NCBI GenBank assembly: GCA_012862495.1
Contig: BLSG01000088.1
Span: forward strand, 79,658 to 115,358
From: Thraustochytrium aureum
Taxonomy: Eukaryota
Reading direction: 5' to 3'
DNA: 35,701 nucleotides
The translations under genes and the position numbers were made by a program. The notes below the pieces were generated by a model. That model searched no databases. It saw only the letters and a list, made by a program, of their open reading frames with translations, and was not told the origin of the DNA. Below are positions 3,001 through 32,700 of the stretch, one piece after another; position 1 is the stretch's first letter, and each line of letters opens with the position of its first letter.

Positions 3001-3422
3001 AGTCGTGCTCGTCTGGAACGCCAGGACCGGCCAGGGGCTGCGTCGCCTCGCAGGGCTCACCGACTCGGTTGCTCTCGTGGCCTTTTCGGCCGACGGGCTG
3101 CACGCCCTCGCGCAAGACGTGCATGGTCGCACGCTGGCTTGGTCGGTGGCCACTGGCCAAAAGGTGAGGGATGAAAACGTCACAGCCGCCCTGGCCCAAC
3201 GCGAGCTGAAGCTGCCGTGGCTAGCAAACAGCTCCAGCACGGTTTCGGTCGTCGGCGAGGACGGCCCGCCTGTCTGCGGGTTTCACATGCGACTCCACAA
3301 TCAACGCCAGTGTGGTTGCGCCGGATGGTTCGTTCGTTTTCCTGTTCGACGGCTCGAACCAGCTGTGCAAGCTAGAGTTAGTGCGGCGTCAAGAGCCGCT
3401 CGATGGCGACTGCCAGTGGTAA
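2..3422 (+). CDS. NACHT/STAND NTPase + helical domain + WD40-repeat protein (NLR-like, HET-E/NWD type); 5'-truncated; probable frameshift at ~3266
   Basis: The frame is open from base 2 with the Walker A remnant AGFGKS (2-19). Walker B is VVVVLDALDE, followed by LLVSSRP, GLFLYARF and FIHKSMRDFL. Then 13 regular 42-aa WD40 repeats (GH...IVSGS.D.TVRVWD). After ~3266 the +1 frame reads AGFTCDSTINASVVAPDGSFVFLFDGSNQLCKLELV...W* (TAA 3420-3422), a plausible last blade; the unshifted frame stops at 3472. Confidence 0.9.
1535..3172 (+). repeat. Tandem array of 13 x 126-bp WD40 coding units
   Basis: GH/WD motifs recur every 42 codons, with DNA-level similarity between units (e.g. gtctgggacgccaacacgggc-like segments). 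Confidence 0.9.
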
Positions 3423-4073
3423 GCATCTGCAGGGACCGGGCAAACCTTCGGCTGATTTCTTTTCATCCATGACGGTGGAAAGGGGCGCATCTCCTGGAGA
3501 ACAGCAGTCAGGACTCAGGACGATTGCATCCAGGGAAACAATTCTTCGACGAGTGAGATTGCGCCGCATGCCGCGAGGAGGGTCCCCAAAGGTGCTGGAG
3601 CCGCACGCGAATGTGCTCCGCCTGCACAATCGCGACATAGCCAACTGGTCGACCAATGGAGCGCGAAGTCTACCTACTCGCACTGGAAAAAAAGAAGAAA
3701 AAGCGCGAAGGAAAAAGGCAAGCGGAGCGTTGCGGCGATCAACTTGGCTCGACTGCAAAGCGCGCGCGCAAATCGGCGCGTATTGGGCCATAGATAGGAA
3801 TCATCGCAAGCAATATCGCAAGAATCGCAAATCCAGGCCAACTGATATTTTCTCAAACATCTCGTGCGGCGGCCAGTCTGCGGCGGTGGAACGCAAGGTC
3901 GACTCGCACTGTCTCCCTAGGCTAGCGATGGTGGCACTGGCACTGCATTGAAGAACATGCATGCTGACATGGTTGGCTGTTTTGTTCCTATGGACATCGA
4001 AAATTGTAGTTTGGTGAACCCTCCCTAGCTCGGAGCTTCAGAGCCCTCCCGCAGACTGCAAAGCGAAGAAAAC

Positions 4074-4670
4074 CTAGGCCAGCAGCGGCTCCGGAAGGCC
4101 AAAGGCGAGCGCCATCCCCCCCGCAAACATGCCCACGACAGTGGCAATCGACGCGGCACTTAGCGTGGCCATCCCGCTCAGGCCATGTCCAGAGGTGCAG
4201 CCGCCGCCGAGGCGCGAGCCGATCAAGAGCATGATGCCGCCGATAAATGCCCGGGCGTGCGAGCCGCAGCCTGCCTGCGCCTGCGGCGTGAGGGCCGGGT
4301 AGTCGGCCAGGTACTGCGAGGCTGCCGCTCCGGCAGCGATCCCCGCCGCCACGAGAAGCTGAAAGGCGGCCTTGCGGTCACTCTGCGCGCTCTTGAGTGC
4401 TGGCGCGTGCTCCTTGAGGTTGCCATCAAAGATCTCGGCAAGGAAGCCCGCAATCATAACCCAGCCCGAAGACTGCCCGAGCGCCTGCCCAGAGCTGAGC
4501 TGCACCGGGATCTGGAGCAGGCCAAGCAGCAAGCCTGCGACAGCGGGGTCCCAAACGACTGCCGTCGGGTCGAGCGGAAACGGATGCGCCTCCAGGTTGA
4601 GCGGCCCGCTCACAACAGCAGCGCTCTGCTCAGTCCAGGGGAAAAGGTGGTTGAAGCCTGCGATCGCGCC
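4074..4670 (-). CDS. YeeE/YedE-family sulfur (thiosulfate) transporter, C-terminal half; N-terminus lies in the gap
   Basis: Hydrophobic protein with AFIGGIMLLIGSRLGGGCTSGHGLSG, WDPAVAGLLLGLLQIP and LGQSSGW motifs. The frame is open from the gap edge (GAIAGFNHLFPW...) to TAG at 4074. Confidence 0.85.
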   Translation of the reverse strand, partial: GAIAGFNHLFPWTEQSAAVVSGPLNLEAHPFPLDPTAVVWDPAVAGLLLGLLQIPVQLSSGQALGQSSGWVMIAGFLAEIFDGNLKEHAPALKSAQSDRKAAFQLLVAAGIAAGAAASQYLADYPALTPQAQAGCGSHARAFIGGIMLLIGSRLGGGCTSGHGLSGMATLSAASIATVVGMFAGGMALAFGLPEPLLA

Positions 4671-5618: not shown

Positions 5619-8441
5619 ACAAACTTGCTCGGAAACATTGCCGCAAGCCCGCCCATCGAGTCTGCGATGCTCACGTTGTCTGGAAGCGGGCCAGTGTCGC
5701 CGTCCTCCTCATTCAAATAGGTGTCAACTTGAACACTGCCCTCCACAATTGCCGGGGCCAATCTGAGGCTGGCCGCTTCCCAGAGCTGCAACTTGGTCTG
5801 CGATGGCTTTGACCCCCTGCGCTGGCGAAAGGAGCCGCGTTGCGTGGAAGGCGCCGAGGCAGAAGAGTCTTCGTCGCCGTCGATCTGCTGCTTGGGCGAT
5901 CTTGGAGCCCGAGTCGAGATGCGCGAGGGCAGTTCAGCGGTTCTCGCAGGCGAGCCTCAGCATCGGCTCGTGGAACGCGGCGCTCGGCCGCCAAGCAACG
6001 AGCTCAACTCGAAGCGGGTACCTGCTTGCTGTGTGAGCGGCGAAGGCAGCAAATCGCTTCAGCAAATTCGCCGCGGCCAAGCTCATGGGCCCCGGTGCCC
6101 CGCGGCAGTCCCATAGCAGCCGCACCGAGAAGAGTTGGCCTGTCCTTGACTCGAACGAGTCGGCTACGAGCAAGCATACTTCGAGAAACCCGATGACAAT
6201 TTCCTCGAGATCGGCATCTGTAAGGGCGCCGGCAATTTCGTCAAAGCGCGTCGCACCGCAGAGGCTGCAATAGTGAAAGATCGTCCGCTGATCCTCTGAG
6301 ACAACCAGATCCGAAAAGTCTGGCAAGATCCCACGAAGAGCGCTGAGGCCAGGCAGTGCTTCGATCAGGGTGGCGTCCCTCGCCAATGCGGCGTTTCGGA
6401 TCTCCGCCGCTCCGCTGGCAACGCGCCAATCGATCCAGTCCTGCATCGCTCTCGCCGCTTGGAGCTGATTTTGCTCGTGCCTGCGAAGGGAAAACAGGAG
6501 CTGCCGGTCGGTACCGATCGCTCGGTCTCTGTAAGGCTCCTTCGACTTGACCAGCTTGCGCATTTCGACGACTGCATTGATCTCTGCCTCGGTGACCAGG
6601 CCGTGGCGCAGGTGGTCAAGCGCACTTTCTTCACGTTTCGTTTGCTTCTGCAGCGCTGCCTCCCGCTCTGCAATCCGCTGCCTGAGCGAGAGGAGGTCGC
6701 GAACAAAGCTCAACTTGTAGGCCAAGCTGAAAATGACGACGAGGCCCTGTACCAGCGCCAAGCTGATCGTCGATGTCACGCATCGCGCGAAAACCTCGTC
6801 AACAAGGCAGAGCCCAAACTCTTTGGTGAAGATAACATCCGTGAACGCGATCCGGTACGCTGTGAACGCCAAGATCACAAGGTCCTCGACGAAGGCAGAA
6901 ACCAAAATGAGGCGCGCCTTTCCACGTTTGCGCTGAAGGGTGAGCATGTCGTACTCGAGCATGCCGTGTCCGCATGACGATTTCTTCAGTTTACCCTTGT
7001 GCCTGCCGGTGGCGCTCGCTGGCGTGATCTTGGGATTTGCGAGGAGCGATTTCCGATGCTGGCGCGCGCTGATCTTGTTCACGCGGATGCCTTCAGTGAG
7101 CTCGCGCCGGAGCGCCCACATTACTTTGGCGTGCTGGGCGCTCGTGTAAACGCCAAACATGAATACCAAAATCGTGCTCGCGCTATAGAGCTTGCCATAG
7201 ATGTCTACGTCCTCTGCCCCTCCTGAGGCGGCGTTGACCCCGCTGGTGTAGGCGACCCAGTTGAGGAGATCTATCGCCTGGTCCACGATCTCTTGGAGAA
7301 GGAGCAGCGCAGTGCGATAGCTTTCCCGGCGGGCCTTGCGCTTGTCAAGGCTCGTGAGCTCCAGCAGCTCCGAGTCTGCTGCCCGACGACGGATGCTGTT
7401 TTGTCGACCCCAGGACACTTGCAGCGAATTCTTTCGCATGTCGGGCTGGATCCAAAAGGCAAGGTGCAGCACGACGCTCCCCGCAGCCCAGGCGATTGGA
7501 AGCTGATAAGAGCACTTGAGCATGGCGAACGGCCAGGCCGTTACGGCAATCGCAGCGACGGCATTCACAAAGGTCTGCCTGGTTGACTCCAGCCGCAGTC
7601 GCGTTGCATTTCGCTCAAAGTTCATGAGCTTCTCCAGCTCTTCCGTACTCTGCGCATCGCCGGACATCGCGTGGCTCGTCGAGTTTTCCAACATCCTCTG
7701 CAGTGCAGGTATTTGCACCTGAAGGATGCGCAGCACTTCGCCAGCGGCGCGCGAAATGCACAGTGTTCCCACGCACATTGTTGAAATAAGCACCAAGTAG
7801 TGTAGGCGTAGGTAAACGACGAAGTTTTCAGGGTTCACCAGCGTCATCATTGGTATCGCGCACGAAAAGAAAAACAGCACCAGGGTCGCGACGAAGAAGA
7901 TTGTGATCCTGTCCGCCATCGACTGTTGTGAGATCTTGCTTGCCCCTGAGCTACTTCGAAAGTTGAAAGACATGAGGATGTTTTCGGCCCAAATCCAGGC
8001 GGTAAACATCATTCCCGTCCAGAACTGGATCATTGCGACGCAAAAGACCACTGTCATCAGCCTGTCCCGACCAACGACTGCGTGCATCGGGTCCCGGACT
8101 TTCATCGTGCCGCTCAGGGCAAACAGCGCGGAGGAGCTGGAAAGCCAGGCAGAGTGGAAAATCGAGTACACAGACGCCTCGCCGCGCAGCCAGTTGCGCG
8201 TTTTGTTGAACGCTTTGGCGAGTCCGTGGACGAACGTGCTGGTGTGCAGCACGGCGACCAGACCCCAGAGAATCTTGATGGCCATCTCGTGGTTTCCGCA
8301 ATCGATTCCCACGTACGGGACGAAATCGGCCACGGGCAGCCACCCAGGGTCGCATATGCATGTCCTGTTGACGCAGACTCCATGTCCCGAACACTCGCTC
8401 TTGTCGGGCCAGTTTATCGGGCATTCCAGCGCAGTCTGCAT
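5619..8441 (-). CDS. EGF-like domain + ~11 TM segments (7+4) + C-terminal CRAL-TRIO/Sec14-like region; probable frameshift at ~5945 with the tail running into the gap
   Basis: Long ORF 5934-8561; likely ATG at 8441 (gccATG). EGF pattern CSGHGVCVNRTCICDPGW...C at 8298-8423 followed by hydrophobic helices. DRQLLFSLRR...AARAMQDWIDWR and LLWDCRG...RYPLRV resemble Sec14 motifs. A +1 frame stays open from ~5955 to the gap at 5619. Confidence 0.7.
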
Positions 8442-9043
8442 GGCTGATCCGAGGGCCCTGGGCCCAGGCGCCGTCGCGGCGAGGCGCGGCAAGCCTGCAC
8501 GCGTTCGCAGCTCAATGGCTCTGCGAGGGGAAGAGCAAGAGTGCAGGCACCCCTGCTGCATTTGGGCAGCTCCCTAGCTAGTTAGAGCAGAGGAACGGAC
8601 TTGCGGCTTAGCATCGGCCAATCCTCGCCCCAGCTGCTTGCTGCAGATGTGCCTCGGCTTGGCCGAGCTCGTGGTGTTGCCTACTACAGAGGGCAGACAA
8701 TCCAACGGATACATNNNNNNNNNNNNNNNNNNNNNNNNNNNNNNNNNNNNNNNNNNNNNNNNNNNNNNNNNNNNNNNNNNNNNNNNNNNNNNNNNNNNNN
8801 NNNNNNNNNNNNNNNNNNNNNNNNNNNNNNNNNNNNNNNNNNNNNNNNNNNNNNNNNNNNNNNNNNNNNNNNNNNNNNNNNCTCCAGAACGAGCGGGGCC
8901 CACAGGAGGGGAGCTTGGTTCTCTGCCGAGGTCGAGCTCGGCTGGCCACTTCTCCGATTTGTGCGCTCCTGGCCATGCAGCCGCTGACCACATAAAGGGA
9001 GGTGCTTTTGCAAGGTGTTGCAACGGAAGACTGTACTCTAGCT

Positions 9044-10464
9044 CTAGAAAACATTGATGAAAGCCGTTGACGCGGTCGACTTGCTCGGGTCCGGAAAGCC
9101 GTACTCGTCAAGCGCAAATGAACGAATGAACCGACGAAACGCAGGCGACTCCTCCGTGAGAACCTCGCTGTTCTGCGCGACTTTTTCGAGATAGTTCTCC
9201 AATCCGATGCGGCGGCGCTCGACGCCGCGTGCGCTAAGCCGGCGGCCGAGCATGGTGCGCTTGGGAAACGGCAGCAGCCGCATCTTGCTGTAGTTTGAGA
9301 TCTCGGCTTGCATCTCGTCGTGGACTTGGCGGAGTTCGCTATACCGATAGCGTCTGGCAAACCGCAAGTCCAAAACCACCTCAAAGTAAACTACGCCTGT
9401 GCTCTCCCGCGCAAAAGCGCTTGGCACGGCGATCGAGATGCCGCTATGCGCAAGCCCTGACGGAAGTGGCGAAGCTGGCGTGGGCGGGAGCGGAGCGCTG
9501 CGTGCTGAAGGCAGCATCTTGGCAACCGTCGGGAGCGCTTTGCACAGGAGTCGCGAATGAAGAATCCCAGTCTGGTCGGCGATCGGCAGGAGCGCAGGAG
9601 TGAGCGGCATGAGCCGGTCGAGCACGTCTATTGTCTTGTCCATGTTGGGTGCGAGATTGTCGATGTACTTGACCAGGATGGGGAGGAACGGGAGCAGCGC
9701 GTCCACGTGTTTGGCGAGCCGGTGCGAGTGGGGAGCGATCTTGTCGATGTGCGGAGCGAGCTGGTCCAAGTACGGCAGGGCGTACTCCCAGCCGCGCACG
9801 TCGAGAAAGACGATCATCGAGTCGATGTGCGGCTCCATCGCCTCGATATGAGGAAGGAGGACGTCGACGTGGACGATTAGCTTGTGAGCGTGCGGGGCGA
9901 TGAGGTGCATCTTTGGCGCCAAAAGGTCCAGGTGCGGAATGAGCTTGTCTTGTATCTCGAGGATCTCTGGCAAGAGCGGGAGGACGTACTGCTTTTCGGC
10001 CATGATCACGTCGAGCAGCGGCGCCATCGCCTCGATGTTCTCCAAGAGCTTGAAAATGTACGGCAGGACGTCCAGCGCGTACGGGAGGAGGTCGGGCAGG
10101 TGGGGGATGATGAACACGAGGCTCTCACGCACCGCGCCGGCCTTCTCCATGCCCTTGCCAATCGCGCGCAGTGGTGCCAGCCAGGCCACAAAGATGCCTA
10201 CGCACACGAACGCCGTGTCTCGCCACAAGAGGTGGCCAACTGGCACATCGTACGCATTCAGGGCCCACAACGACGCGGCGAAGAAGAGCGCAAACCAGAT
10301 CCACACCGGCACGCCCCCGCCCCGCACGGCCTGCAGCGCCACCTCGCGCCTTCTCCGCCGCCGTTTGCCTTCTTCAACTCCTTCTTCAACCTCTTCCTCC
10401 GCCCGCGCCCTTTTGCAGCGGCTTCGGACTTGACGCGCTTCCCGCCGCTGCCCATAGGCGCCAT
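9044..10464 (-). CDS. Membrane-anchored PX-domain protein with a Leu/Pro/His heptad-repeat region; probable frameshift at ~10410
   Basis: C-terminal PX motifs VVYFEV, RYRYSELRQVH, PFPKR, ERRRIGLENYL (9120-9397). Two N-terminal hydrophobic segments. The main ORF (9044-10342) starts at a GTG; the nearest upstream ATGs (10464, 10455; MAPMGSGGKRVK) are in a neighbouring frame. Confidence 0.8.
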
Positions 10465-11443
10465 CCGCCTGATCGCCGAGCGCGCTCGAGGTCCAGTCAA
10501 AGGGCCTCCCAAGCCAGCGCCAGCCAGCTCTGCGTCACGCACGCTCCCACGCAGGACCTCGCAGCGAGCACCGCGGCGACGAGGCCGCTGGCGTTCAGGC
10601 AACTCGGTTTGGACGCCGGGGAGCGAGCGGAGCAGCACCAGAGTACTCAGAGAAGACAAGAGTACAGCCACAGCCAGCCAGCCGCTCGTCGAAAGCCGAG
10701 TCTGCCTGCGGGGCCTTGATCGATCGATCGATTGGCTTGTCGAGCGCCGCGTCCCGGCACCCAATGTTCGCGCAGGCACCCGACTCACCACGGGGAAAAC
10801 CGACTTTGCACATGCCGGCAGAGCGCCCTGTGTCCATCCGACAGCGTCCAGTCCGACGGAGTTGTGCGCGAGGCGTACGAGAATACCGGTACGTCCCGCC
10901 CGCCCGCCCGCTTGACGTACTCACCGCAAGTATGCTGCGGTGGCGCTCCGTTGTACGAGAGGCTTGGTCTACTCCAGGTTGGGCACTCCAGGTGAGTGCT
11001 TACTCACTGTCTTCTTGTCGTCGCAGCGGCTCGCGTCCGTGCGTGCGTGAGCGGGTCGGCTCCGAGCTTGGCCACGCGCGCTGAGCGCCGCACTGTTCGC
11101 TCGNNNNNNNNNNNNNNNNNNNNNNNNNNNNNNNNNNNNNNNNNNNNNNNNNNNNNNNNNNNNNNNNNNNNNNNNNNNNNNNNNNNNNNNNNNNNNNNNN
11201 NNNNNNNNNNNNNNNNNNNNNNNNNNNNNNNNNNNNNNNNNNNNNNNNNNNNNNNNNNNNNNNNNNNNNNNNNNNNNNNNNNNNNNNNNNNNNNNNNNNN
11301 NNNNNNNNNNNNNNNNNNNNNNNNNNNAGCGAGCCGAGCGACGAAGGCGAACTGCCGTCCTCCAGCTAGTAGAGCTCTCTCGAGCCAGCTTTAGAGCGCT
11401 ACTAGAGCAGGGCAGGACGCGGCCGCGGCCGCGCGCGGACGGG

Positions 11444-14400
11444 ATGCCGCTCACGTCCTCGGTGCGCGATGTACCAGCGGGTGTCATCGTTCGAAGGCCC
11501 TGTCTCGTGTTCTGGGGCACGCTCGCAGTCGTGGCTCTCCTGAGCTGCATACCCTTTGCTCTGCAGCTAAGTGTCGTGATCGACACTGGCGTCAGCACGT
11601 TTCAGACTCACGGGACAGCACTCTCTGCCGCAGAGACCGCGGGAGACGCCATCTCCGATCTGATCAAGTTGCAGAACAAGCCGAGCACAAGTACTCGCCG
11701 CCGCCTCGCCTCTGACTATCCGCTCGACGCGCTGGTCGAGGATCCAAGTGCATGGGATAGGAGAACCATGTCCGTCGGACACGCCAACGCGCGCCATTTG
11801 CACGAAGTTGCTCGCCGGGGTGCAGAAACCGTGACAATACCTCGCGCGCTCGACGAGCCGGTCGCCACGTGCGCCGTTGCCGCCTGCGGCGTCGAGAGGG
11901 AGGTGTGCGAATCTCACCAAGGCAACAACACCGCGCTCTGCGGCCAAGCCAGCGACCGCGCAGCCCTCTGCGTATCCCACAAAGACGCCGACGCGTGTAT
12001 AAGTGAGCTTTACAGCTCTTACGCGTGGAGCTCGAGCGTTCGTACTCTCGTGCTCTGCATTGGTGGCAACCGCCAGCCGTGCTCCGGCGAGTCCTCGACG
12101 GCACAGGCAGAGTCACTGCGCGTCGAAGTCGTCTACTGGGCGCACAGCTCGGCCTCGATCCTTACTGAGGAGCTCCTTGCCCAGGCCATGGCGATCGAGT
12201 CCTACATGCTTTCGCTCATCGCAAGCTCTGGACACTGCGTTGCACCGTCTCCCAGCGAGAGCCACCCCAACGGCGACGTTGACCCCAAGTGCGCCTCGTG
12301 GGCCCTCGAGGGCTCGTGCCTTACCCACGCGTCGTTCATGAACCGGTTTTGCAGGGCCAGCTGTGGCACCCGAGAGGAGACTAGGGCCGCTGCAACAGCC
12401 TTGTCCGGGTGCCGAATACCTGCTACAGCACTCGCGGAATTCTATCCAGCGTATCCTGACGCGGACGGTGCCCTACAAGGCGACCTGCTCCGGCGAAAGG
12501 TGGTCTCGTTGGCCGCCAAGGCCGACCATGGTGCGCTTGAGCGATGGACGGGTGTCCCTTTCACCGCGTTCTTCGACAAGACGTTCTCTTCCTGCAACTT
12601 GACCAGCGTGGTTTTAAGGTCGCACGTCCACATGCAGGCTAAGCCGGCAGAGAGCGCGGACGCATTCTGGGCCTGGCGCAAGTCTCTCTGGAACGCGGTG
12701 ACCGAGCACGCCAAATCTTCTGCTCCGGATCTCCGCTTCGCAAGATTTGACCTGGCCAGAGGCGAGGAGGAGAAAGAGGACATCTTGTTCGAGGACGCCA
12801 AGTTGGTTGGCGGCGTTATTGTCGTCGTGTTTTTGCTCACTTGGTACCACTGCAACTCGCTCTTTCTCGCGATCTGCAGCTTCCTGCAGGTCAAGCTCAC
12901 ATTCGTAAGTCCACCTTGGTTTCCTTGTCTGCACTTAACCGGCTAGCCCCAGTTCGCTAACCGCAGATCCTGGCGCCCGCGCAGCCGCTGGCCTATTTCG
13001 TGTACCGCGCCGTACTCGACATCTCCTGGCTCGGCACGCTAAACTTTCTTTCGCTCTTCATCGTCGTTGGGATTGGCGCAGACGACACCTTTGTCCTCCG
13101 CGACGCCTGGGTCCAGTCCGGGTCGATTTTCGGCGAGGACGACCTGACGATGCGTATGCGATGGACGCTTCGACGGGCGGGCCACTCGATGGCAATCACC
13201 TCGACGACCGGAGCGCTTGCTTTCTTCTCAAATGCCGTTTCCTCTGTGCCTCCGCTGCGCCTGTTCGGAATCTGGACAGGCCTGTTGCTGCTTGCAGACT
13301 TTGTGCTCACAGTTACCTTCTTGCCCGCGGCAATCGTGATCGAGGAGCGCTACCTGCGGCGCCGCAGCCTTGCCGGTGAGAGCCAGGTTGCGCCCATGCC
13401 ACAGCAAACGAGCGATCCGAAGCCAGCGGCGCAGCTTCGCGGAATCGAAAAGTTCTTTGCGACCAGGTACACGGCCTTTATGACGCGCAACGCGGGCTGG
13501 TTTGTGGTGGGGTTTTCGATTGTGCTTGCCGTGTTCGCAAACATCAGCCTCGACCTTGCCCCAACTCGAGAGAATCCGGTGCTCTACCCAGACACGCACA
13601 ACCTGGGGATGATGGAGACCCTCAAGGCAGGCGTTTTCCCAACCAGCACTTATCCGCTGCCAGTTTCGCTGATGTTTGGCGTCCTCCCTGTGGATAATCG
13701 ATTTGCGCTCGACCCGGCGTCCACGCCGAGCGTTGTTTGGGACGAAGCCTTCGATCCCAGCTCCACAGAGGCCCAGCAGCACGCAATCGGAATCTGCAAT
13801 CGGCTGCTGGCAAGCAGCGAGTTGGTTCGCATGGTTTTCCGTTGCCCGTGGTACGACTTTCGAGACTGGGCTATCGAGGACGGCAAGGGGTTTCCAGTGC
13901 CGCAGGAGGTGTTTCACGAAACCTTTGCGCGCTTCGTAGACAGCCCAGAGGGCTCCTTCTTTTCGGACGAGGGCGACGTTTTCGTCGAAACAGCGTCAAA
14001 GCGCCTCAAGTTCTTCCGAATCGTTGTGCTTACCACTCTGGACACGGGCTCGCTCTTTGACTTGGACGGCGTCAAAGCGAGCCACGACGAGTGGTTGGCT
14101 TGGATCTACCGCCGCAACACAGAGTGGGCCGCAAAGATGCAGGGCGGATGTCCTGGCGCCGAGGTCTTGGAGTTGAGCGGAGCGACCGAGGATGCGGACA
14201 GAGTCGTTTCCGATTGCGGGGTCGCACTGGTCGCGTCGAATTTCGACGGCATGGGCCGAAGCTTCATCACTGGGCGGCACTTTTACCACTTTGACACAAT
14301 CAACTCGTTGCAAGTTGTCGGCAAGCTGGCCATGGTTATTTCGTGGGTTCTGGCGTCCGTTTTTGTGACGCTGAGCACCAACAACGTGCTCATCGGCCTT

Positions 14401-16005
14401 TTCGCCGCGCTGACGTTCGCGAGCATCATCTTCCAGGTACTTGGTCTGATGGTCCTCGGCGGGTTTACCGTCGGGGTCCTGGAGAGCATTGTGCTGTCGA
14501 TCCTCGTTGGCTTGAGCGTGGACTACACTGTACATCTTGCCAACGCCGTTGTTGAGGCCCCGGCAGGGCTTACAAGCGCAGAGCGGACGCAAATCGGTGT
14601 GAGCCGCCTCGGCATCAGCGTCCTTTTCGGGGCCCTCACCACGGCAGCGTCGGGGCTCGTTCTTTTTTTCACGACCATTACCTTTTTCCGCATATTTGGG
14701 TGGTTTATTGTCACTGTGGTGATCGTCTCGCTTGGGAACGCGCTCGGCTACTTTGCGGCGCTTTGCTTTTGGTGGTGCCCCAGGGACGGGGCGTTTGATA
14801 TCCTGCGGTCCTCCAAGCGTAGTGCAGGGGGGGTTCCAGGTACCGCAACTAGTGCGGCTACTTCTCCTCCCCTTGGCGAGTTGGGAGCAAACACTTTGCA
14901 AGGCGCCCCTCAAGTAGCGCCAGGCGACGCGGGCGGGCAGAACGCAGCGCTGCCCAAGAAGCGAGTCTCGGTAGCAATCTTCCTCCCATCGCGCAAAGAG
15001 GGGGCCCAAAACGCTGCTCGGCAGAGCTTTTACAAGCTGACTTCCGGTCTCGCTCTCTTGTTGGGCTTGGCAGCCGCCCTGCGCACCCTGCTCAGCGCGC
15101 CCGGCGGCGACGCGATGGCCGCGTTTGATGCCGCGCAAGCCGAGACGGGAGGCGTTGTTTCGCTCAACCTCACGTTCCCGCGCACGAAGCTCCTTGCTTC
15201 GCGAACTCAGTACATGTGCAGCGGCTTTGGGTTTTCCGACGTGACACAGCCCACGATCTACGTCAACGAGATCCGCGTCGCAGACCGCAAAGTTGGCATT
15301 GTCCACCATATGGTCGCGTTTCGGATGATGAGCACCCCGCGGCGATGCGCGTTCCAGTGCTTTGACATGCCGGAGACAACGGGCGTAGTGTATGCCTGGG
15401 CCATAGGTTCGTACGGGCTAAAGCTCCCTGAGGGCGTGGCCATTCCTGTTGGCGGAAGCTCTGCGACCTCGTCGATTGCACTTCAAATACACTATGACAA
15501 CTATCCCGAGACGGAGACCGAGGACCCCGGAAGCGGGCTCATCTTCTATGGCTCGCACACGCCGCCGAAGCACTTGCTCACAACCTTCGCCGTTGGATTT
15601 GCCACCAACTCGCCGTCGGTGGCGATCCCGCCGGGCGAGGCAGACTTTCGCATCAAGACAAGGTGCCGGCCCAAGCTGATCGGCAACGTGACGCTGCTCG
15701 CATACGGTCATCACGCGCACAAGGTTGGCAGAAGAATTGAGGCCAGCCAAATCCGGGGTGGCAGCACCATTGCGTCACTAGGGGTTGAAGACCCGTACGA
15801 CTTTGACCTCCAAAACATGAAGCTCTTCGACAGCGCCCCGACCCTAGTTCCGGGCGACGAGATCGAGATCGAGTGCGCCTACAATACCGAGTCCAAGTCG
15901 GCGTATGTTTACGGTGGGCTGGAGAGCGACGACGAGATGTGCATGACGTTTTTCATGGCCTACCCGCAAGAATATGTCGTGGAGCCTTTCTGCTACGTCT
16001 ACTAG
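11444..16005 (+). CDS. Dispatched/Patched-family (sterol-sensing, RND) transporter with a ShK-like domain, fused to a C-terminal copper type II ascorbate-dependent monooxygenase; exons ~11444-12904 and 12985-16005
   Basis: SSD motifs FIVVGIGADDTFV (GIGADD 13069-13086), SMAITSTT, PPLRLFG, and LVGLSVDYTVH (GLSVDY 14509-14526). Monooxygenase motifs IVHHM, YAWAIG, LQIHYDN, HHAH, YDFDLQ, GDEIEIECAYNT, DEMC. The frame is also open upstream of 11444 to the gap at 11328, so the true start is uncertain. Confidence 0.9.
12905..12984 (+). other. Spliceosomal intron (80 nt) in the RND-monooxygenase gene
   Basis: Donor GTAAGT at 12905, branch-like GCTAAC at 12956-12961, acceptor CAG at 12982-12984. Removal joins the two ORFs in frame as FLQVKLTF|PLAYFVYR. 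An alternative in-frame acceptor exists at 12966. Confidence 0.8.
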
Positions 16006-18014
16006 AGCCGTGCGGGAGTCGTCGCAAGCGAGCAAGGAAAGCAAGCAAGCCCAACCCCCAAACGCCGCAACAAGGAAAGGTTAGAGTCAATTACCACCGC
16101 CGCTATGCACCGTATATTTATTGTAGGGATCTTGGAGCCCCCTCGCGCTTACGGCCGAGGACGAGAGCGCGGCAGAGCAACCTCTAGAGCACGCCGGTGT
16201 GAGCAAGGCTTCGTTAAAAGGCCGCGCCGGCCAAGGTGCGCCAAGACGGAGGTCGATAGCGATTCCGTGCGACCCTTGCATAATTTGAGCGCCACATCGT
16301 TCAGGACTTGACTTGCCGCCTCCGCGTTCGTCCGAGTTAGAACTAGAAGCAAACTGCCCTCAACGTGAGCCCTGCCGTTTCATCGGAACGTAGCAGTCCA
16401 AAATGGGGGCGAATGGAACCGTCAGGTCCAGTTCGCAGAGGAACGGCACGCCACGCTGCTAATGAATGGCGAGGCTTGCAAGTCCTGAGAACTAGGAATG
16501 ATACGAGGACCGCGAACCATACCTCGACGTCTTGCCTTGGCTCAGACAGGCTTGTCCTTCGCCGTTGCTCGGCTTGTCCGTTGTTTTTTTCTTCTTCTTC
16601 TTCTTTCCCAAGCGTCCCCAAACAGCACTCTCCACTGATCGCTGGACTTCCGCTCAGAGGTCTGCGCGCTTCCAGGCCGTGCTCGATCACTCTCTCGCGC
16701 GCTGGCTCAAAGCACCGAGCCTCGTTCAGTGGCGAGGCCCTGTGGGCTCAAGGCTCCGCGAGCCAAATCGCCATGCCACCAACCGATTAGTCTGCGCGCG
16801 TCGTTTCACAAAGCTCACGGCCTTCTCAGCGGTTGAGCGGTGGTCTGGCCACGATGGAGCTGCTCAGGAGGCCACCTCGAGCCCAACAGCTCCAGCGCGG
16901 CCCTCTGCGCGAGTGGCGTTGGACATGCAGGTCCACTGTGACCAAACTCGATGCGACGGAGTGCGGAGAAGAGGTCAAGCACAAGCAAACGGATCGCTGG
17001 GTGCGGCGGGCGACAACGACCTCGCGCTCCTCTGCCGAATGACAGCCTGCGTCGCACGCTTCGCGCCGGGCTCTTCTTGTCTGTGCTGAAAGAAGCGGAT
17101 GTTTAGCAGTTCTCATGATGGGAGTTGCGTTGCTCTTGTTCTTTTTCCAGCCAATGCGCCAAGCAGAAAGGGCATACAGAGTACTTGAAGACCATCTCAC
17201 ATGCACGTAGGCTGCGCAGCCGCCTCGCGACCGTCGCAGTCGCATCCCCGCCCGCCGCTGCGTCGACTCGCTGCTCGGCGGCCGACCTCGAAGCACCCTC
17301 GTGGCGACCAACTAGGCGTTGGGTCTCCCCTCTAATTATAGGCCGCAATAATAAGATATTATCTAAATAGTTTACAGAGGGATTAATGTCCGTTTCGTGC
17401 CTTTGCGATGTGCTTCAGCCCCGTGGGTGCCGCCGCGCAGAGGCGGTGCACGCAACTCTCGCGCGTGTGAGAGCGCAGACCAGGCAAGAGCGCGAGGCGA
17501 AAGAGTGAGAGACTCGGAGCCTGTTTCGCAGCACTCTGGACAAGAACTGGTCCATCGCAAGCGCATTTGCGGCGTCCAACTACTCGGCAACACCAACAAA
17601 AAACAACAGCTCTCCGGCATCACCAACATCAAGACGGAGAGAGCACCAGGTCAAAACGACTCGGTTGCGAGCGCGCGCAGGCCGACGGGCAGGCACACGG
17701 CCACGCGCGGAGGCCCGGCGCGCGAGAGCGAGCAAAGGCAGCACCCAGGGGACTTGTCGTAGGCCCTCGAACGCTCGACGCGGTGGGCGTAGACGCGCCG
17801 CTCCAGAGGTACACGGGAAGCCAGCGAGCTTTGCGTTGGGGTCCACGTGAGGCGAGCGGGAGGAGGCGGCTTTCTCGGGCGGCGAGGGCGGCGGCTGTCG
17901 CTGCGAAGGGCGGGCGGCCGCACGACGGCGGGGCAAGCGGCGCGCCGCACGGCGTGGCCCGCCCCACCTTTCAGGGAATCGGCAGCGATCCCCTGCGCTC
18001 GATCCTTGTGAAAG

Positions 18015-21000
18015 ATGAACGAGACAAATCACATACGCGACGTGGAGGCTGCTGACGGGGCCGGGGCTGGCTCCGGAACAGCGGCGCTCGAGGTTGGCGT
18101 CAAGGCCTCACGGCCGTGGCAGGACCGCGTCTTGGAAGCTCTGCGCCTAAAACGGCCGGTTGTCAAGGTGGGGTCGCGCTTTGCGCACCTAAACGAGCCA
18201 GAGCAGAACGACAAGTACCAGCACGTGTCCAACGTGGTCAAGACGTCAAAGTACACCGGGTATAACTTCCCGCTCAAATTTGCTGTGGAGGCGTTCAGCA
18301 AGTTTGCCAACTCGTACTTTTTGCTTGTTGGCGTGCTTCAGATGATCCGGCCCATCAGCATCACAAACGGGATTCCATACAACCTTGGCCCACTCGTGCT
18401 CGTCCTGTTCGTGGAGGCGGTGGCCCTTTTACTGGAGGACAGCCAGCGGCACCGCGACGACCGCATTGCCAACGCGTCGCACGTGGACACCCTATCCCGC
18501 GACTCCAAGCTGGTGAGCAAGACGTGGGCACAGCTCGTGGTGGGCGACATTGTGCGACTTCAAAACCGCGAGCCCGTGCCGGCCGACTTGCTGATTCTCA
18601 CAAGCGCGAACGAGCCGGCGATCTGCTACGTCGAGACAAAGTCCCTCGACGGGGAAACCAACTTGAAGCTGCGACAGGGGCTCCCCGCGCTGGCCGAGCT
18701 TCTCAAGGCGCTTTCAACGAGCAAGTCAGGCAAGTCGGGCGAGACGGCGCTCTTGATGGCCCTGAATAGGCTGCAGGGCCTGGTCGAGTACCAGTCGCCC
18801 GACGCGGCGATCGACACCTTTCACGGGCGCGCGAGCATCAAGCTCGGAGACGTCATGGTCGAGGGAAGTCTGGTGGCGGACAACCTTTTGCTCCGCGGCT
18901 GCGTGCTGCGAAACACGGACGAGATGTACGGATTTGTGCTCAACACGGGGCACGACACCAAAATCATGATGAGCGCAAGCGAGACGAAAGGCAAGATGAG
19001 CGACCTCGACGTGCGCATCAACCGCTACATTTTGCGGTTTGTCGTGGCGGAGCTGGCCCTCTGCGTGTTTTCCGCGGGGCTGAGCATGCTCTGGGACAGC
19101 AGGACCGGGTCGTCGGCCTACTATCTCGGGGACACTTCGGATGTCGCCACCGGATTTGGGGCTTTCTGCAAGCGCGTGCTGACATTTTTCCTCTTGGTGG
19201 CGAATTTGATCCCCATCGCGCTCTACGTTGCGATGAAATTTGCGCGCTTCTTCCAGGCTCAGTTCATGATGCGGGACAAGCTCATGGCGTACACGATCCC
19301 GGCGCCTCCGAGCAAGAGCAGCGGTGCTGGCCGCAAGAGCGCAACTGCAAGAAAGTCCAGCCAGCAGCCGGCGAGAGCTCCAGACGAGGACCAGTCCGAC
19401 GCGGCGAGGATGAAAGCCGAGGCAGCGGAAGCTGCTGATGCAGAGGCCTTCAAGGTCCCGTTCAAGGTGCGCACGATGGACATGAACGACGCGCTTGGGC
19501 AAATCAACTACTTGTTTTCTGACAAGACGGGCACGCTCACGACAAACGTGATGGAGTTTCGCAAGTGCTCGATCAATGGCGTGTCCTACGGCAGGGGCTG
19601 CACGAGCATAGGGATCAAAGCCCTAGAGCGCGCCGGGCGCCACAAGGAGGCCGCGAACAAGCTCGCTGAGCTGGACGAGCTCGAGGCCGAGGTCGCAAGT
19701 CAGGGCAGGGCAGTCGTGCCGTACTTTAACTTTGTGGACGATCCCGGGCGCTCGCTTTATGCAGAGCTGCGCTCAGACCGCGAGCCGCGACCCCTCGATG
19801 CGCCGCCCATCCCAGAGCAAGCGCAGCGCGTGACGCAGTTCTTCGTTGCGCTGGCGCTGTGCCACGAGGTTCTTCTCGAGAATGTCCGGGACGAGAACGG
19901 GCAGGACACTGGCGAGCTGCGCCTCTCGGCGGCCTCCCCAGACGACCAGGCCCTCGTGAATGCGGCAGCACAGTTTGGCATCGTGTTCAAGGGAAAGGCG
20001 AACGGCGGGCGGCTCGTCAACCTGGAGCTCTGCATGCCTTTTGTGAACGGGCAGCAGCAGGGCAAGGGCAAGGTGCTCCGGTTTGAGCTGCTGCACACCT
20101 TGGCCTTTACGTCGACGCGGCGGCGCATGTCTGTGATCGTCCGCGACCTGAAATCAAGCGAGGTCCACTTGTTCTGCAAGGGCGCCGACGACGTTATTTT
20201 CGAGCGTCTGCGAGGCGCGACTAGTGGCAGCGACGGCGGGGAAAGAGACCCCGAGTCGCTCGAGGCGCTGACTGAGAGGCACTTGATCGAGTTTGCGGAG
20301 GAGGGGCTGCGCACCTTGGCTGTGGCGCACAAGACGCTGAGCGAGGCCGAGTATGAGCACTTCGCCACGAGTTTTGAGCGCGCGACCCAGGACGTCGCCG
20401 TGCAAGAGCGCCGCAAGAACCGCGAGACGAACGACATCGACTCGCTGATGGACGAGATGGAGGCCGGGCTAGAGCTGATCGGGGCAACCGCCATCGAAGA
20501 CAAGCTGCAGGACCTCGTGCCGGAGACCATTAGCACCATAACCGGCGCCGGCATCAAGGTGTGGATGGTGACAGGGGACAAGCTCGAGACGGCGATGAAC
20601 ATTGCGTATGCCTGCAACCTCGTCGACGACCAGACGGCCGACACGCTCCTAATGACGGCGGGGACGTCCGGGGCCTGGCGGAGGCCAAGGCGGCGCTGGA
20701 CAAGGGGAGCAAGCACCTGCGCGAGTCTCCGGGACGCGACCACGTCCTCGTGGTCGAGGGCAGCGTGCTCGCTCTCGTTCTGAGCGAGCCGGGCGTCAAG
20801 TCGCAGTTCCTCGAGCTGAGCATGGCGTGCCGCTCTGTGGTTGCATGCAGGACCGCGCCGATGCAAAAGGCCCAGCTGGTTTCACTCGTGCGAAACTCCG
20901 CCAAAGACGACCTGAAGACTATGGCGGTGGGCGACGGCGCGAACGACATCCCGATGATCCAGGCCGCACACGTCGGGGTCGGTATTGCAGGCCAGGAAGG

Positions 21001-21902
21001 GCTGCAGGCGGCAAACTCGGCCGACTATTCGTTCGGGCAGTTTCGGTTCCTGGAGCGCCTCCTCCTTGTGCACGGCCGGAGCAACTATCGGCGAATGAGC
21101 AAGCTCGTGCTCTTTATGTTTTACAAGAACATTGTGCTCACGGTGGCCCAGTTCCTGTTTAGCTTTGCGAACGGGTGGTCGGGCCAGAAGATCTACCTCG
21201 AGTTTGGGCTGCAAGTGTTCAACCTCGTTTTCACGGGGCTGCCCAGCTTTTTGCTGGCCGTGTACGACACGGACCTCCCGGACGAGATCATCGTCAAATA
21301 CCCGAGTCTCTACGCGCTAGGCCAGCACAACACGCTGTTTTCAATGCGCGTGTTTTGGCTGTGGATCCTCAACGGCATCTTCCACGCCATCGTGATCGCG
21401 TTTTTCTGCTTTTACGTCTGGGCGGGCAGCGACACGGACATGTGGATGGTGGGCTGCCTGGGGCTCACGCTTGTCATCATGGTGTCGAACGTCAAGGTGT
21501 TTTTTGAGCAGAGTACGTGGCGGCTGTCCAACCACCTGTCCTGGTGGTTTACGCAGCTGCTGTGGCCCGCCATGGCGGTGTGCCTCGAGCTGCCGATGTG
21601 GATCGGGTATGGGGACTGGGGGTTTCAGTGGATGTATGTGTACCGCACAGTTATGGGCCAGCCCCTGACCTGGTTGGTTATGGCGCTTTCGCTTATCGTT
21701 TTGCTCGCCCGCGAGGTGTTTTGGAAGGGTTGGGTCCGTCATACGCGGCCTTGCTTGTACCACATCCTGCAGGAGTGTGTCAAGTTTGACCTTCCCTTGC
21801 CGAGCCCCAAGCAGGGTCGAGGCGATCCAGCGTGGTATCGAGCTAGGCGCGCGCCACGGCAGCGCGCGCGTGGTGGCTGTGAGCGACAGAGAGGCGGCGT
21901 GA
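18015..21902 (+). CDS. P4-type ATPase (phospholipid flippase); frameshift at ~20670 and a possible second at ~21815
   Basis: Motifs ETKSLDGETNLK, LLLRGC, FSDKTGTLT (D at 19521), KGAD, EGLRTL, GATAIEDKLQ, WMVTGDKLETA. The second frame carries GDGANDIPMIQAAHVGVGI, QFRFLERLLLVHG, FYKN and the C-terminal TM helices. The stop is either TGA 21900-21902 (shifted tail VEAIQRG...REAA*) or TAA ending at 21919. Confidence 0.95.
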
Positions 21903-21914
21903 AGGGCGCTTTAA

Positions 21915-21920
21915 AATAAA
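21915..21920 (+). promoter_or_regulatory. Possible polyadenylation signal (AATAAA in an A-rich tract)
   Basis: AATAAA lies just downstream of the TGA at 21900-21902 in otherwise GC-rich DNA. Confidence 0.3.
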
Positions 21921-22342: not shown

Positions 22343-23887
22343 CTATCTCGAGTCAAGCTCTTGGCCATCAGCCGAGTCTTGGGTGCTGCCGGACGGCTCG
22401 TTCGCATCGCGCTTGAGGTAGGATATCCTGCCAGTCCAGTGAATGAGCGCAGTATTCCCCATGGCTGCCGGGTTGACGTGGGGGAGCGCGTTGCGAATGC
22501 TGCCGCGGGTCTTGGCAATGGTCTGCGAAAATGTCGACACTGACGTGCCGATGTAGTGGCGCGCCTGGGCGCAGATCATTTGCTCGACCAGGCCGAAGAG
22601 GTCGCTGCGGATCTCTGACTTGGGCAGGTTGCGGTTGAAGTGGCGCAGCCAGCGCCGCACTGTGGGGTTTTCGGCGAGGTCGGTCTGAAAGACGATGCGC
22701 GGAAAGTGGTCTTTCAGCGCGGCAAAGTACTTGCTCGAGCTGTGGCCGTCCGTGGCCACGTAGACCGGGGTGTCGCGGGCGAAGCCGAACTTTGTGCTGG
22801 CGCGCACGAAGGCGCGCGAGTTGGCGCTGCTCTCCTGCTTGAGCTTCTTCACGTAGTCGCCCATTCGGATGTGGAAAGCGTTGAAGGCGGTTCCGTTGAA
22901 GACCTCGTGGCAGATGCGCTTCGAGAGCTCGCGCAGGTACGGACTGTAGCGAATGTACTTGTACAGGCCCGCTTTGCGCGCCCAGTACTTGGTGTAGAAT
23001 CGCCCTTCGTACCAGAGGAACTGTTTTTTGGACAAAGACCCTTGCGCGAGGTACTCTTTGAGGACCGACGGCGGCGCGCCGTAAAACCCGGTTCGTTTTG
23101 GCGCGTGGATAACGTCGACAAGCTTGGAGCTTTCCCGGCGCACGGCTTGCATCACGTCTTTGTGGAACTGGCGAAGCGTGATGTTGGTAGCGAGGAGCGG
23201 CACACCGAGAGCCTTTTCCATGAAGGGAAAGTCGAGGGCGTGGTCCATGGGGATGATGTCCTTTTGCTTGAGCGCATAGTAGCCCCACGCCATCGACGAG
23301 TGCTTGCCATTCGCCGGCACGATTAGCGTGCGCCCAAGCACTTTGGCCATGTGCGACGCGGACAGCAAGCACGACAGCTGGTTGTTGAACCCCCCAGACG
23401 GGCTATAGATCATGTACTTTTGGCTGGGATCGATCGCATTGTACGGTTTCGTGTCCGTGCGAGGCAGCGTCGAGACGCTCTGGTCCGCCGCGCCGGGGCT
23501 CTGCTCTCCAGGTCCAGACGCCTGCGTTGATTCCTCGTCGTCACTCTCGCCGGGCTCGCCGCTGACGAAGAGCCGCTCCGAGTCCACTTCGTCCAGCCCG
23601 TCGTCGTTGTCACTTTCTCCTATCACTTGCAAAACGGGGGCGAGCGCAACCTCTTCCTCATGCTCGTCCTGGTCTGCAACGTTTGGCTCGCCGCCGTCTT
23701 GCTCGCCCAGTCCCGCGCGCGCTCCTGCCTCTGCGCCGTCGTCAGACTCGGCCGAGTTGGAGCTCTTCGCGCTGACCACGAGGGTTGGGTCCTTGTCCTC
23801 GATCGTGGCCACTTCCTGCGCGAGATAAACCACCACAAAGGCGACGATGGCCAGCAGGACGAGTCGAACCTCGTTCATCCGCCCCAT
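22343..23887 (-). CDS. GDP-fucose O-fucosyltransferase-family protein (POFUT-like, GT-B fold), type II membrane protein
   Basis: N-terminal TM anchor (LVLLAIVAFVVVYLA) and an acidic stem, then SGGFNNQ, AFHIRMGDY, VYVATD and VEQMICAQARHYIGTSVSTFS motifs. Confidence 0.88.
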   Translation of the reverse strand: MGRMNEVRLVLLAIVAFVVVYLAQEVATIEDKDPTLVVSAKSSNSAESDDGAEAGARAGLGEQDGGEPNVADQDEHEEEVALAPVLQVIGESDNDDGLDEVDSERLFVSGEPGESDDEESTQASGPGEQSPGAADQSVSTLPRTDTKPYNAIDPSQKYMIYSPSGGFNNQLSCLLSASHMAKVLGRTLIVPANGKHSSMAWGYYALKQKDIIPMDHALDFPFMEKALGVPLLATNITLRQFHKDVMQAVRRESSKLVDVIHAPKRTGFYGAPPSVLKEYLAQGSLSKKQFLWYEGRFYTKYWARKAGLYKYIRYSPYLRELSKRICHEVFNGTAFNAFHIRMGDYVKKLKQESSANSRAFVRASTKFGFARDTPVYVATDGHSSSKYFAALKDHFPRIVFQTDLAENPTVRRWLRHFNRNLPKSEIRSDLFGLVEQMICAQARHYIGTSVSTFSQTIAKTRGSIRNALPHVNPAAMGNTALIHWTGRISYLKRDANEPSGSTQDSADGQELDSR

Positions 23888-24673
23888 CCCGGCGAGCAAA
23901 TGCCCTCGCGACGTCGGCCCCGCGAGCGTCCGTCCACCAGCAGCCAGCCCGTCACGTGCTGCACCGCACCATCAAAGGCCGCAGCGCCCTCCGTTCGCGA
24001 TGGGCAAGCCAGAACGAGCGTGTGGATGCCGAGGGCGTGATGCCGGCCCGCAGCAGGACCGACACCAGCGGCTGCGGGAGCGCGAACCGCCAGGTCAGAC
24101 GCGCGTCGCGTGGCAAGTGCCGGTGGCCGAGTCGATCGCGTGGAGCACGCCAGGAGCTGGCGCGGTGCGAGTGGTGGAGGCGGGCTCTATCCGTCTGTAT
24201 GTTTCCAACGCATGCATGTATGTTTAGGTGCCTCGTTGGGTGACCGCCTGGCTGCCCGTGCATGCGCCGTCGTCGATGGCGTGTGAGCGGTCGATCGATC
24301 GATCAGGCTCTGTCTGCATCATGGTGGTCGTCTCCACGGCGCAGCGGAGTAACACGGTAGATTCACCTGGTCACAATGTCGAAAAAAAGTAATTATTTAC
24401 CGAATGCGGGATGGGCATTCGTGAAAGAAAAGAAACTGTTGTAGCGCTTCACGGAGTAAGTAGCTAGGTTGTGTTTTGCTCCGGCTGAAGGTCGGCCGTC
24501 ACGGCGTCGGCTTTTCCGTTCGGACGTTTTTGCTTCCTTGAGCACACTTGAAAATGCTTGAAAGTGCTTGAAATGTAGTAGTGAGATGAATGAGGTTGTT
24601 GTTCTTTGTTCTTCGGAGCCGTGGGGAACAGGAGCCGTTCATGCCATCCATGATGCGGATCATGCGGCTCTTG

Positions 24674-31146: not shown

Positions 31147-32700
31147 GGCCTGTTTTGCGGGGATGGGCCGTGCTGTGGCTGCCACACGGCGGCGCGCAGA
31201 GGAGGCAGACGGAGGTGCGGGACACCTATGTATCTAGTTGTATCTTGCCCGCCCACCCGCCCGCCCGTGAACGGTGTTGCTTGCTGCGGCCAGAGATTGG
31301 GCTTGCGAGGTGTGCCCTGCCACGGACGCGCTCGTTCGTGCGAGGGCGGCGCTGTAGTGGAGGTTGATGACATGGGCAGCAAGCATCCACTTGCCTTCAG
31401 CCGTGACGCTCGGCGCGTCACGTTCTCGTCACTCGCTACCGACTACGCAAGAGTCTGGGCCTGCGCACCGCGCTGGCGCTGATTCGTGCCGTGACCAACA
31501 CAGGCGCATTTATGAGCGGGACAAGCGGAAGAGCTGTGGCGCAGTCCTGTTGCTGCGCTTTGAGGACTCGCGAGCCGGCCGTGCAGCCCCCGCGTCGTAC
31601 TGAGGCCTGTGCTGGCCTGCATTCCACGTCCCGGCCATTCGCTTCTGCGCCGCCGCGGCGACGCAGGAAAGCCGTTCGCGGTCGTAGGAAAGGAATCCCA
31701 ACGAGCTGCACAGGTAGGTAGATCTCGGAAGAGCAGAGGCTTGCAAAGGCCGGGAGCTCGATGATGCTCTGCAAAGGCGTCATCCTTGACGATCTTGAGG
31801 CGACCCATGGCCACTCGTTAGGCTGCATCATTTCTGTTCAATTGAAATGGAACGTCCTCCACGCTCGCGAGGCCAAAACCCACAGGCAGCGGCTGGCTCG
31901 CTGAAGATTGCCTCGCGAATGACGGACGGCTTTCCGACGTTGATTCGAAACGCCCGCGACAAACTTGTTGACGCGGCCACCCGCGGATCCAAAGAGTTGC
32001 ATCAAGCTGCAATGCCTTGACGAGCACACAGGATTGATTGTTGGCGAGGGATCTGTAGGAAGAAGGTCTTGCCGGCGAGCGACACGCTATGCAGCTGCAT
32101 GCCCATGCGCTTGCTGTTTTGGGTCATACTCGTGTGGGCCGCCCTGCGCGACCCTGTCGAGCGCTGCTTGTCCACGCGAACAATGCTCGCGCTCCCCCTC
32201 GCATGACAGCTAAGTAAACACTTGCCACATGGCCGGATAGGCCCGTCGGCACAGGAAGGAACGAGTGCAGCAACAACGCGCAAGCTAAGTAGAGCTCCAC
32301 CAGCACTGGACTGGCAGACCGTTGTCCTGTTCTCTCATCCTAAGCAAGTACTTCGTCGAGCAAGCCTTCGGCTGCGGGTTGATGCTCGCCAGGCGCGTTG
32401 GTCCTCGAGAGTCGTTCGCCGTTCGCTTCAATGGTGATCAAGGGCTTGTTCCCCCTCGCCGGCGCGATGGAAGCGCAGGACGCGCCAGGAGCGATTCGGC
32501 GGCGACATCTGGGCGGCCAAGGCCTCGAGCATTGCATTCCGGCAGTCTCTAGCTAGGTATCTCTGTGGAGAGCGAGCGACTCGTTGCTTTGACGTCCGCG
32601 CACGCGTTCGCCGCGGCTGATCGCGGACGGCGGCGCCTGCGTGACTTGCTTGGGTCTGGTGGCTTGCTGGCCGGCGCGCAAGCACGAACGGCGCGCGGGG

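Follow-up and report, generated by a model that had tools for sequence, protein, structure and literature searches.

A Dispatched-type transporter and a copper monooxygenase in one reading frame

Can one membrane protein both take hold of a lipophilic molecule and oxidise it? The question is raised by a locus of Thraustochytrium aureum (assembly GCA_012862495.1, contig BLSG01000088.1), where a single gene joins a Dispatched-type RND transporter to a type II copper monooxygenase. The stretch analysed, 35,701 nucleotides (nt) long, is called the window here; all coordinates are window positions, and the fusion gene with all its features lies on the + strand. A sequence-only reading of the window had placed both parts in one uninterrupted open reading frame (ORF), judged both to be intact, and proposed that the protein modifies a lipophilic or peptide cargo and then exports it.

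Two exons (11444-12904 and 12985-16005) encode a product of 1493 amino acids (aa) in which a 12-helix Dispatched-type RND transporter is followed by a linker predicted to be cytosolic, a 13th helix, and the copper monooxygenase. From 12961 to 16005 the frame runs for 1014 codons from stop to stop, with Pfam matches to Sterol-sensing (2.3e-15) and Patched (3.9e-14) at its start and to Cu2_monooxygen (8e-14) and Cu2_monoox_C (1.5e-24) at its end, each exceeding its curated cut-off (for the two copper domains, PF01082 at 52.4 bits against 30 and PF03712 at 86.7 against 23). Together with the fused relatives described below, the open frame and the domains at both of its ends bear out the single-ORF claim.

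The upstream frame (11444-12946) encodes transmembrane helix 1 (TM1), an ectodomain with a ShK match (3.2e-5), and TM2-3. Exon 1 covers TM1, the first ectodomain (ECD1) with its ShK insert, TM2, and most of TM3; its start gives an N-terminus of the same length as in the relative P0003, and no in-frame Met was found between the N gap and 11444. Exon 2, delimited by the open frame and the Pfam matches, holds the remaining RND core, the linker, TM13, the enzyme, and the stop codon. Four in-frame donor/acceptor pairs could delimit the intron (alternatives include donor 12890 and acceptor 12966), and an 80-nt, phase 0, GT-AG intron at 12905-12984 is the preferred prediction because it has a consensus donor and gives a product length in agreement with the intron-less orthologue P0003. 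A synonymous single-nucleotide polymorphism (SNP) at 12901 agrees with coding sequence up to 12904, of 24 coding SNPs in contigs from three public DNA runs 16 are synonymous, against 25% expected (p 1.6e-5), and across the linker the two alternative frames are interrupted by 3 and 4 stops.

Because N gaps occur in the assembly and the frame is broken in adjacent genes, the fusion needed testing; orthologues that carry the same fusion settle the question. P0003 (1527 aa) has the whole architecture, including the ShK insert, with 48% identity over the C-terminal transporter half and 58% over the enzyme; with P0008, P0021, P0024, P0169, and P0170 it makes up a set of six full-length fused relatives. 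P0024 and P0040 are Trinity ORFs of Gymnodinium smaydae (EukProt EP00928), both fused single chains, and since they come from a transcriptome, the fused form exists as mRNA; given the feeding habit of G. smaydae, the reads behind them may be of prey origin. The Dispatched-copper monooxygenase fusion is not an artefact: that two neighbouring genes were joined through misassembly or an overlooked intron or stop is a negligible prospect, for which frame breaks in adjacent genes and an interval bridged by no Logan contig (14818-14849) can be cited, and which the 1014-codon frame, the six full-length relatives, and the two transcriptome ORFs contradict. That interval lies within the window's linker; none of the Logan DNA contigs of run X1 spans it, and the hole proves nothing. 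Where the sequence-only reading had allowed for orthologues encoded as separate genes, or for transcripts ending between the two parts, we found fused orthologues and, in relatives, single-chain transcriptome ORFs; a misassembly in the linker is unlikely given the orthologues, with no read set bridging the window's own linker.

The transporter belongs to the Dispatched subfamily

Hydropathy and AlphaFold models give the transporter 12 TM helices, arranged as 1+5+1+5 with two ectodomains. It belongs to the Dispatched subfamily of RND/sterol-sensing domain (SSD) transporters: the sequence match is strongest to Dispatched (E 4e-43, vs 5e-14 for PTCH1 and 3e-10 for NPC1), Foldseek ranks 1-8 are all Dispatched, and the best fold match is Dispatched 6tbu (Z 45.1, rmsd 2.7, 540 aligned). 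A copper exporter of the CusA type was considered and dropped, sequence, fold, and Na+ ligands being Dispatched-type. TM1 (11501-11581; hydropathy 2.37) leads into ECD1, the SSD (12782-13353; Pfam, hydropathy, and alignment) spans TM2-6 and contains the intron, TM7 and ECD2 occupy 13486-14280 (hydropathy, model, and fold match), and TM8-12 occupy 14281-14778.

DISP1 uses a set of Na+-ligand residues for the Na+-driven release of lipidated Hedgehog. Nine such side-chain ligands are given for mouse DISP1 in a preprint (bioRxiv 10.1101/2020.09.05.284026). The window protein has eight of the nine, with all three Asp and five of the six hydroxyls: GIGADD (13069-13086) aligns with D571/D572 (Na+ sites II and III), GLSVDY (14509-14526) contains the equivalent of D1049, ALTT (14632-14643) that of T1087/T1088, and in TM5 (13198-13212) T610, S611, and T613 are present with Gly at the T614 position. 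Four of the seven full-length fusions have nine of nine ligands and three have eight, with D572N in P0003 and T614S in P0021. Such retention likely marks an active transporter.

A dibasic RRRL motif in the ECD1 loop (11696-11707) is a candidate convertase site. The pattern RR.?L follows TM1 in 8/9 fusion-clade proteins, vs 5/62 other RND matches with a detectable TM1, and lies in the same region as the furin site of human DISP1, which is cut in ECD1 at R280/E281 so that the ectodomains open to protein cargo (PMC8630017). The ECD1 insertion site is variable, with an optional ShK-like six-Cys insert in the window protein (12275-12370), P0003, and P0022, a WSC insert in P0169, and none in P0024.

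With DISP1 (PDB 7rph, 6xe6, and 6tbu), its best match by sequence and fold, the window protein shares the 12-TM RND fold, the SSD, the TM4 and TM10 aspartates, the TM5 and TM11 hydroxyls, the ECD2 start motif, and the basic motif in the ECD1 loop; it differs in the added TM13 and catalytic ectodomain, the ShK insert, and the Gly at T614, and its host is not known to have a Hedgehog cargo. PTCH1 and NPC1 have the RND fold, the SSD, and the Na+ ligand pattern in common with it (NPC1 partly), whereas their sequence match is far weaker and they lack an appended enzyme.

The enzyme fits neither the PHM nor the DBH type

The N-terminal Cu2_monooxygen subdomain (15169-15507) and the Cu2_monoox_C subdomain (15607-15969) were aligned to PHM and DBH, and all six Cu ligands are present: CuH His3 at 15304, 15307, and 15490, and CuM His2Met at 15712, 15718, and 15937. 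These are the ligands with which PHM and DBH hydroxylate C-H bonds, using O2 and a reductant. Judged by domains and ligands, the window enzyme is a member of the copper type II, ascorbate-dependent monooxygenases. The motif positions reported earlier all agree with ours (HH at 15304-15309, the H of QIHY at 15490, HxH at 15712-15720, and the M of EMC at 15937), as do those of the 13th helix, GIGADD, GLSVDY, and sequons at 15166 and 15685. With the Cu ligands complete and eight of nine Na+ ligands in place, both halves do look intact. Across the family the six Cu ligands are complete in 10 of the 12 fused domains; P0105 lacks the C-terminal end.

PHM binds the peptide carboxylate through Arg240, Tyr318, and Asn316, as described in PMC12164859. 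At Arg240, Asn316, and Tyr318 the window enzyme has Gly, Met, and Phe, and among the fused domains Arg240 occurs in 0/12, Tyr318 in 0/11, and Asn316 in 1/11. The family has a signature of its own, CxxxCxDMP (15346-15372), whose DMP is found in 10/12 fused domains and 0/8 of the DOMON type. Absence of the peptide-binding residues together with this signature argues against peptide amidation, and the pocket is probably less polar and unsuited to peptidyl-glycine; of the lipophilic or peptide cargo first proposed, the peptide half is weakened.

By sequence, the enzyme fits neither PHM/PAM nor DBH/MOXD1, the PHM peptide site and the DOMON domain both being missing. With PHM it shares the two-subdomain fold (TM-score ~0.72 on target), H107/H108/H172, H242/H244/M314, and Q170, and differs in the three replaced carboxylate-binding residues, the lack of a PAL domain, and the CxxxCxDMP loop. 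The DOMON monooxygenases of the DBH/MOXD1 type provide the best sequence match of the Cu domain (4zel, 5e-18) and have the same Cu ligands and no Arg at the R240 position. The window enzyme differs from them in having no N-terminal DOMON, Gln for Glu before the third CuH His, no Cys after HH, and the CxxxCxDMP loop in place of the DBH-type loop. No DOMON was found ahead of the Cu domains of the window protein, either by Pfam or with a profile built from seven DOMON stretches, and one read by eye in the tail of P0008 was not confirmed (profile E 0.03-0.08, no Pfam hit).

A fusion-type Cu monooxygenase with a stellacyanin-like C-terminal domain (E 7e-6) was also seen in P0059/P0177, where the N-terminus may be an exon fragment; P0059 groups among the fused Cu domains in the tree, and its joining to a transporter is not shown.

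The 13th helix likely places the enzyme on the exoplasmic side

The two parts are separated by a low-complexity linker (14791-15003) that is predicted to be cytosolic and disordered (pLDDT <50 for residues 621-684 of P0002) and varies in length and sequence among relatives. It is followed by TM13 (15037-15093), predicted from hydropathy, models, and flanking charges to be an N-in/C-out anchor of the enzyme; the chain is cytosolic after 12 helices, and a further crossing by TM13 would bring it back to the lumen or the outside. In each of 13 fusions (P0170 excluded) a hydrophobic helix lies 31-51 residues ahead of the enzyme's first YxC motif, and Lys/Arg are more numerous on its N-side in 12 of the 13, with a tie in P0169. 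The window helix is the least hydrophobic of the family (Kyte-Doolittle 1.78), and its pLDDT is ~50-58, vs ~90 for the equivalent helix of P0024.

AlphaFold models of full-length P0024 (pLDDT 87.7, pTM 0.81) and of the window exon-2 product (85.0 and 0.78) both show the predicted layout. For an enzyme domain left unplaced (20 Å error) the computed upper limits of pTM are 0.70 and 0.79, below the observed 0.78 and 0.81, an uncontrolled comparison that gives a weak hint of a defined position for the enzyme. From the models, the N-side basic residues, and the recurrence of the helix in relatives, TM13 likely holds the enzyme on the lumenal or outer side, as had been proposed.

Relatives and phylogeny

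Searching a library clustered at 50% (1.84 billion cluster representatives) gave 7722 matches, of which the best 150 were taken. The 166 proteins classified comprise 14 with both parts, 11 with the enzyme only, and 141 without the enzyme domain. Both parts occur in 10 of the best 150 of the 7722 matches, and the remaining four of the 14 represent one gene (P0006, P0008, P0010, and P0018). P0169, P0170, and P0184 came in addition, as cluster mates. P0022 and P0004, each from a Logan contig of 9857 nt and abutting in sequence, are likely one fusion gene split by an ECD2 intron. For the fusion clusters looked up, every source lay outside NCBI and UniRef, and a profile search for longer proteins, a low-sensitivity method, recovered P0003 as the sole fusion. 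In the ESM Atlas, whole P0003 led to Patched-type clusters only (scores <0.9) and its enzyme part to plain Cu-monooxygenase clusters; both families stood together in no listed cluster, which shows neither novelty nor absence.

The fusion was described nowhere in the literature searched, in line with the earlier statement that no characterised protein with this architecture was known; most subscription papers, supplements, and InterPro tables fell outside that scope, and an unremarked listing may exist. Both parts are of known kinds, and their pairing, conserved in distant relatives, is apparently unstudied.

Trees of the TM core (SSD plus TM8-12) are unrooted, and all their rows are top matches of the query. 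With FastTree, the 123 rows having both segments place the seven full-length fusions and the truncated P0025 in one group (support 90), and IQ-TREE on 54 hand-chosen rows of the 123 recovers the same clade (97/92), with a long-branch warning for P0008. This clade adjoins, and is separate from, one with vertebrate DISP1. In the enzyme-domain tree, a 95/90 branch divides the 12 fused rows from eight DOMON-type domains and P0171. Pairwise identities of the transporter and enzyme parts correlate across 11 proteins (rho 0.61, p 0.0004); by this measure the two parts diverge in parallel.

Two further proteins, P0098 and P0141, have a Dispatched-like RND core, linker, TM13, and, in the slot of the oxygenase, a Notum/pectinacetylesterase (PAE) domain whose GxSxG motif looks intact. 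The layout is the same, with the enzyme predicted to be exoplasmic; theirs is a serine hydrolase in place of a Cu oxygenase, and P0098 lies outside the Cu-fusion clade. The Notum family removes the fatty acyl group from Wnt. A third arrangement is seen in P0171 (Vermistella antarctica, EukProt EP01104), where two DOMON domains, cytochrome b561, a linker, a TM helix, and a Cu monooxygenase form one chain; by analogy, it may indicate the kind of electron donor used by the fused enzyme.

Possible function

We give an even chance to a scheme in which Na+ drives the removal of a lipid or lipid anchor from the exoplasmic leaflet and the tethered enzyme hydroxylates it, the protein acting like DISP1 combined with PHM/DBH. 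With Na+ flux as the driving force, the transporter would lift the lipid, a sterol or an anchor, out of that leaflet; the enzyme, predicted on the exoplasmic side via the 13th helix, would hydroxylate the lifted lipid there; and the more polar product would then leave the membrane. Electrons would be supplied from outside, by ascorbate via cytochrome b561 or by a small redox protein. In this scheme we infer the topology, the lipophilic non-peptide substrate, the hand-over between the parts, the outward direction, and the outside electron donor. An exoplasmic enzyme agrees better with "extract, then oxidise" than with the order of the sequence-only reading, "modify, then export". The esterase found in the same slot in P0098 and P0141 is counted as support for this scheme.

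Several observations weigh against such coupled extraction and hydroxylation. The two parts are joined by a long, disordered, and variable linker; the T614 ligand is replaced by Gly in the window protein; and the Na+ ligands, no less conserved in PTCH1 and in 116 non-fused relatives, carry no information on direction or coupling. DBH likewise lacks Arg240, so small amines may be substrates. In P0110, which is still fused, CuM is kept, all three CuH histidines are gone, and DMP has lost its Met; it is a possible pseudo-enzyme. The correlation between the two parts is driven partly by close pairs, the fusions do not come out as one group in a tree of TM8-12 only (monophyletic in 32% of bootstrap trees, which had not converged), and P0105, which stands apart from the other fusions in that tree, may represent a second origin. 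A related TM-plus-enzyme module stands on DOMON/cytochrome b561 in P0171, so the module is mobile. Finally, one DNA contig of run X1 (depth <5) lacks 59 nt in TM11 (14650-14708), which would shift the frame and reflects either a null allele or a contig error.

Among the alternatives, we think it quite unlikely that a lipid-anchored protein is the cargo, in the manner of DISP1, and that the enzyme detaches the anchor by hydroxylating the carbon beside its heteroatom, which would make the protein an oxidative counterpart of the Dispatched-Notum fusions. Dinoflagellates are reported to have Hog-domain proteins (PMC2362128). The nearest structures are those of Dispatched and not of NPC1 or PTCH1, the fusion clade adjoins that of vertebrate DISP1, the dibasic motif in ECD1 resembles the DISP1 furin site, and the ShK and WSC inserts could be binding modules. 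Yet the trees that place the two clades side by side are unrooted, and RRL-type motifs are frequent in the secreted proteins of protists.

Modification coupled to import or to membrane remodelling, in which an external or prey-derived lipid would be oxidised and, in the manner of PTCH1 and NPC1, moved inward or between leaflets, strikes us as improbable. The Na+ ligands are common to PTCH1 and partly to NPC1, and an identical exoplasmic topology would suit uptake, but both sequence and fold are far closer to Dispatched than to either. We see as little prospect that the halves are co-localised and chemically independent, with a soluble small molecule as the substrate of the ecto-enzyme and the transporter only a scaffold for its anchoring or trafficking. 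The flexible linker, the presence of the module on another membrane protein (P0171), and the one pseudo-enzyme member (P0110) would agree with this; TM13 alone would suffice as an anchor, yet the fusion has been kept down to ~30% identity with both active sites intact, and a second enzyme type, from a family that acts on lipid modification, occupies the same slot.

Extraction followed by oxidation can be set in a wider and more speculative frame, which we hold to be doubtful: microbial eukaryotes would possess an undescribed "extract-and-edit" class of Dispatched proteins, in which Na+ drives lipid extraction and a 13th helix carries an exchangeable enzyme on the exoplasmic side, the copper version releasing lipid-anchored surface proteins or making a secreted oxy-lipid signal by oxidation and the Notum version acting by hydrolysis, and animal Hedgehog export would descend from such a lipid-editing exporter. 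The fused enzyme offers a handle on the cargo of Dispatched-like transporters in organisms without Hedgehog, in that the substrate of the 290-residue soluble Cu domain, once found, would likely reveal the cargo of the transporter. As a distinct subfamily of the PHM/DBH type with a different substrate pocket, the Cu domain may hydroxylate C-H bonds of lipids by new chemistry. Taken with the Notum fusions, it suggests a capacity of eukaryotic RND proteins for direct coupling to catalysis at the outer face.

Genomic neighbourhood

By Pfam, no functional cluster is evident around the fusion gene among its neighbours within the window. Genes for a multi-WD40 protein (2-3472, +), a sulphur-transport protein (4074-4670, -), an EGF-domain protein (5934-8573, -), a PX-domain protein (9044-10534, -), an O-fucosyltransferase (22343-23971, -), and a VIT1 transporter (32593-33588, +) were assigned by Pfam and have no evident link to the fusion. 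In a PurK-type ATP-grasp gene on the - strand the frame changes at ~30245, where an intron would not fit; an assembly indel is likely. A P4-type phospholipid flippase gene (18012-21919, +) lies downstream of the fusion, and its frame change near 20670 is likewise probably an assembly indel.

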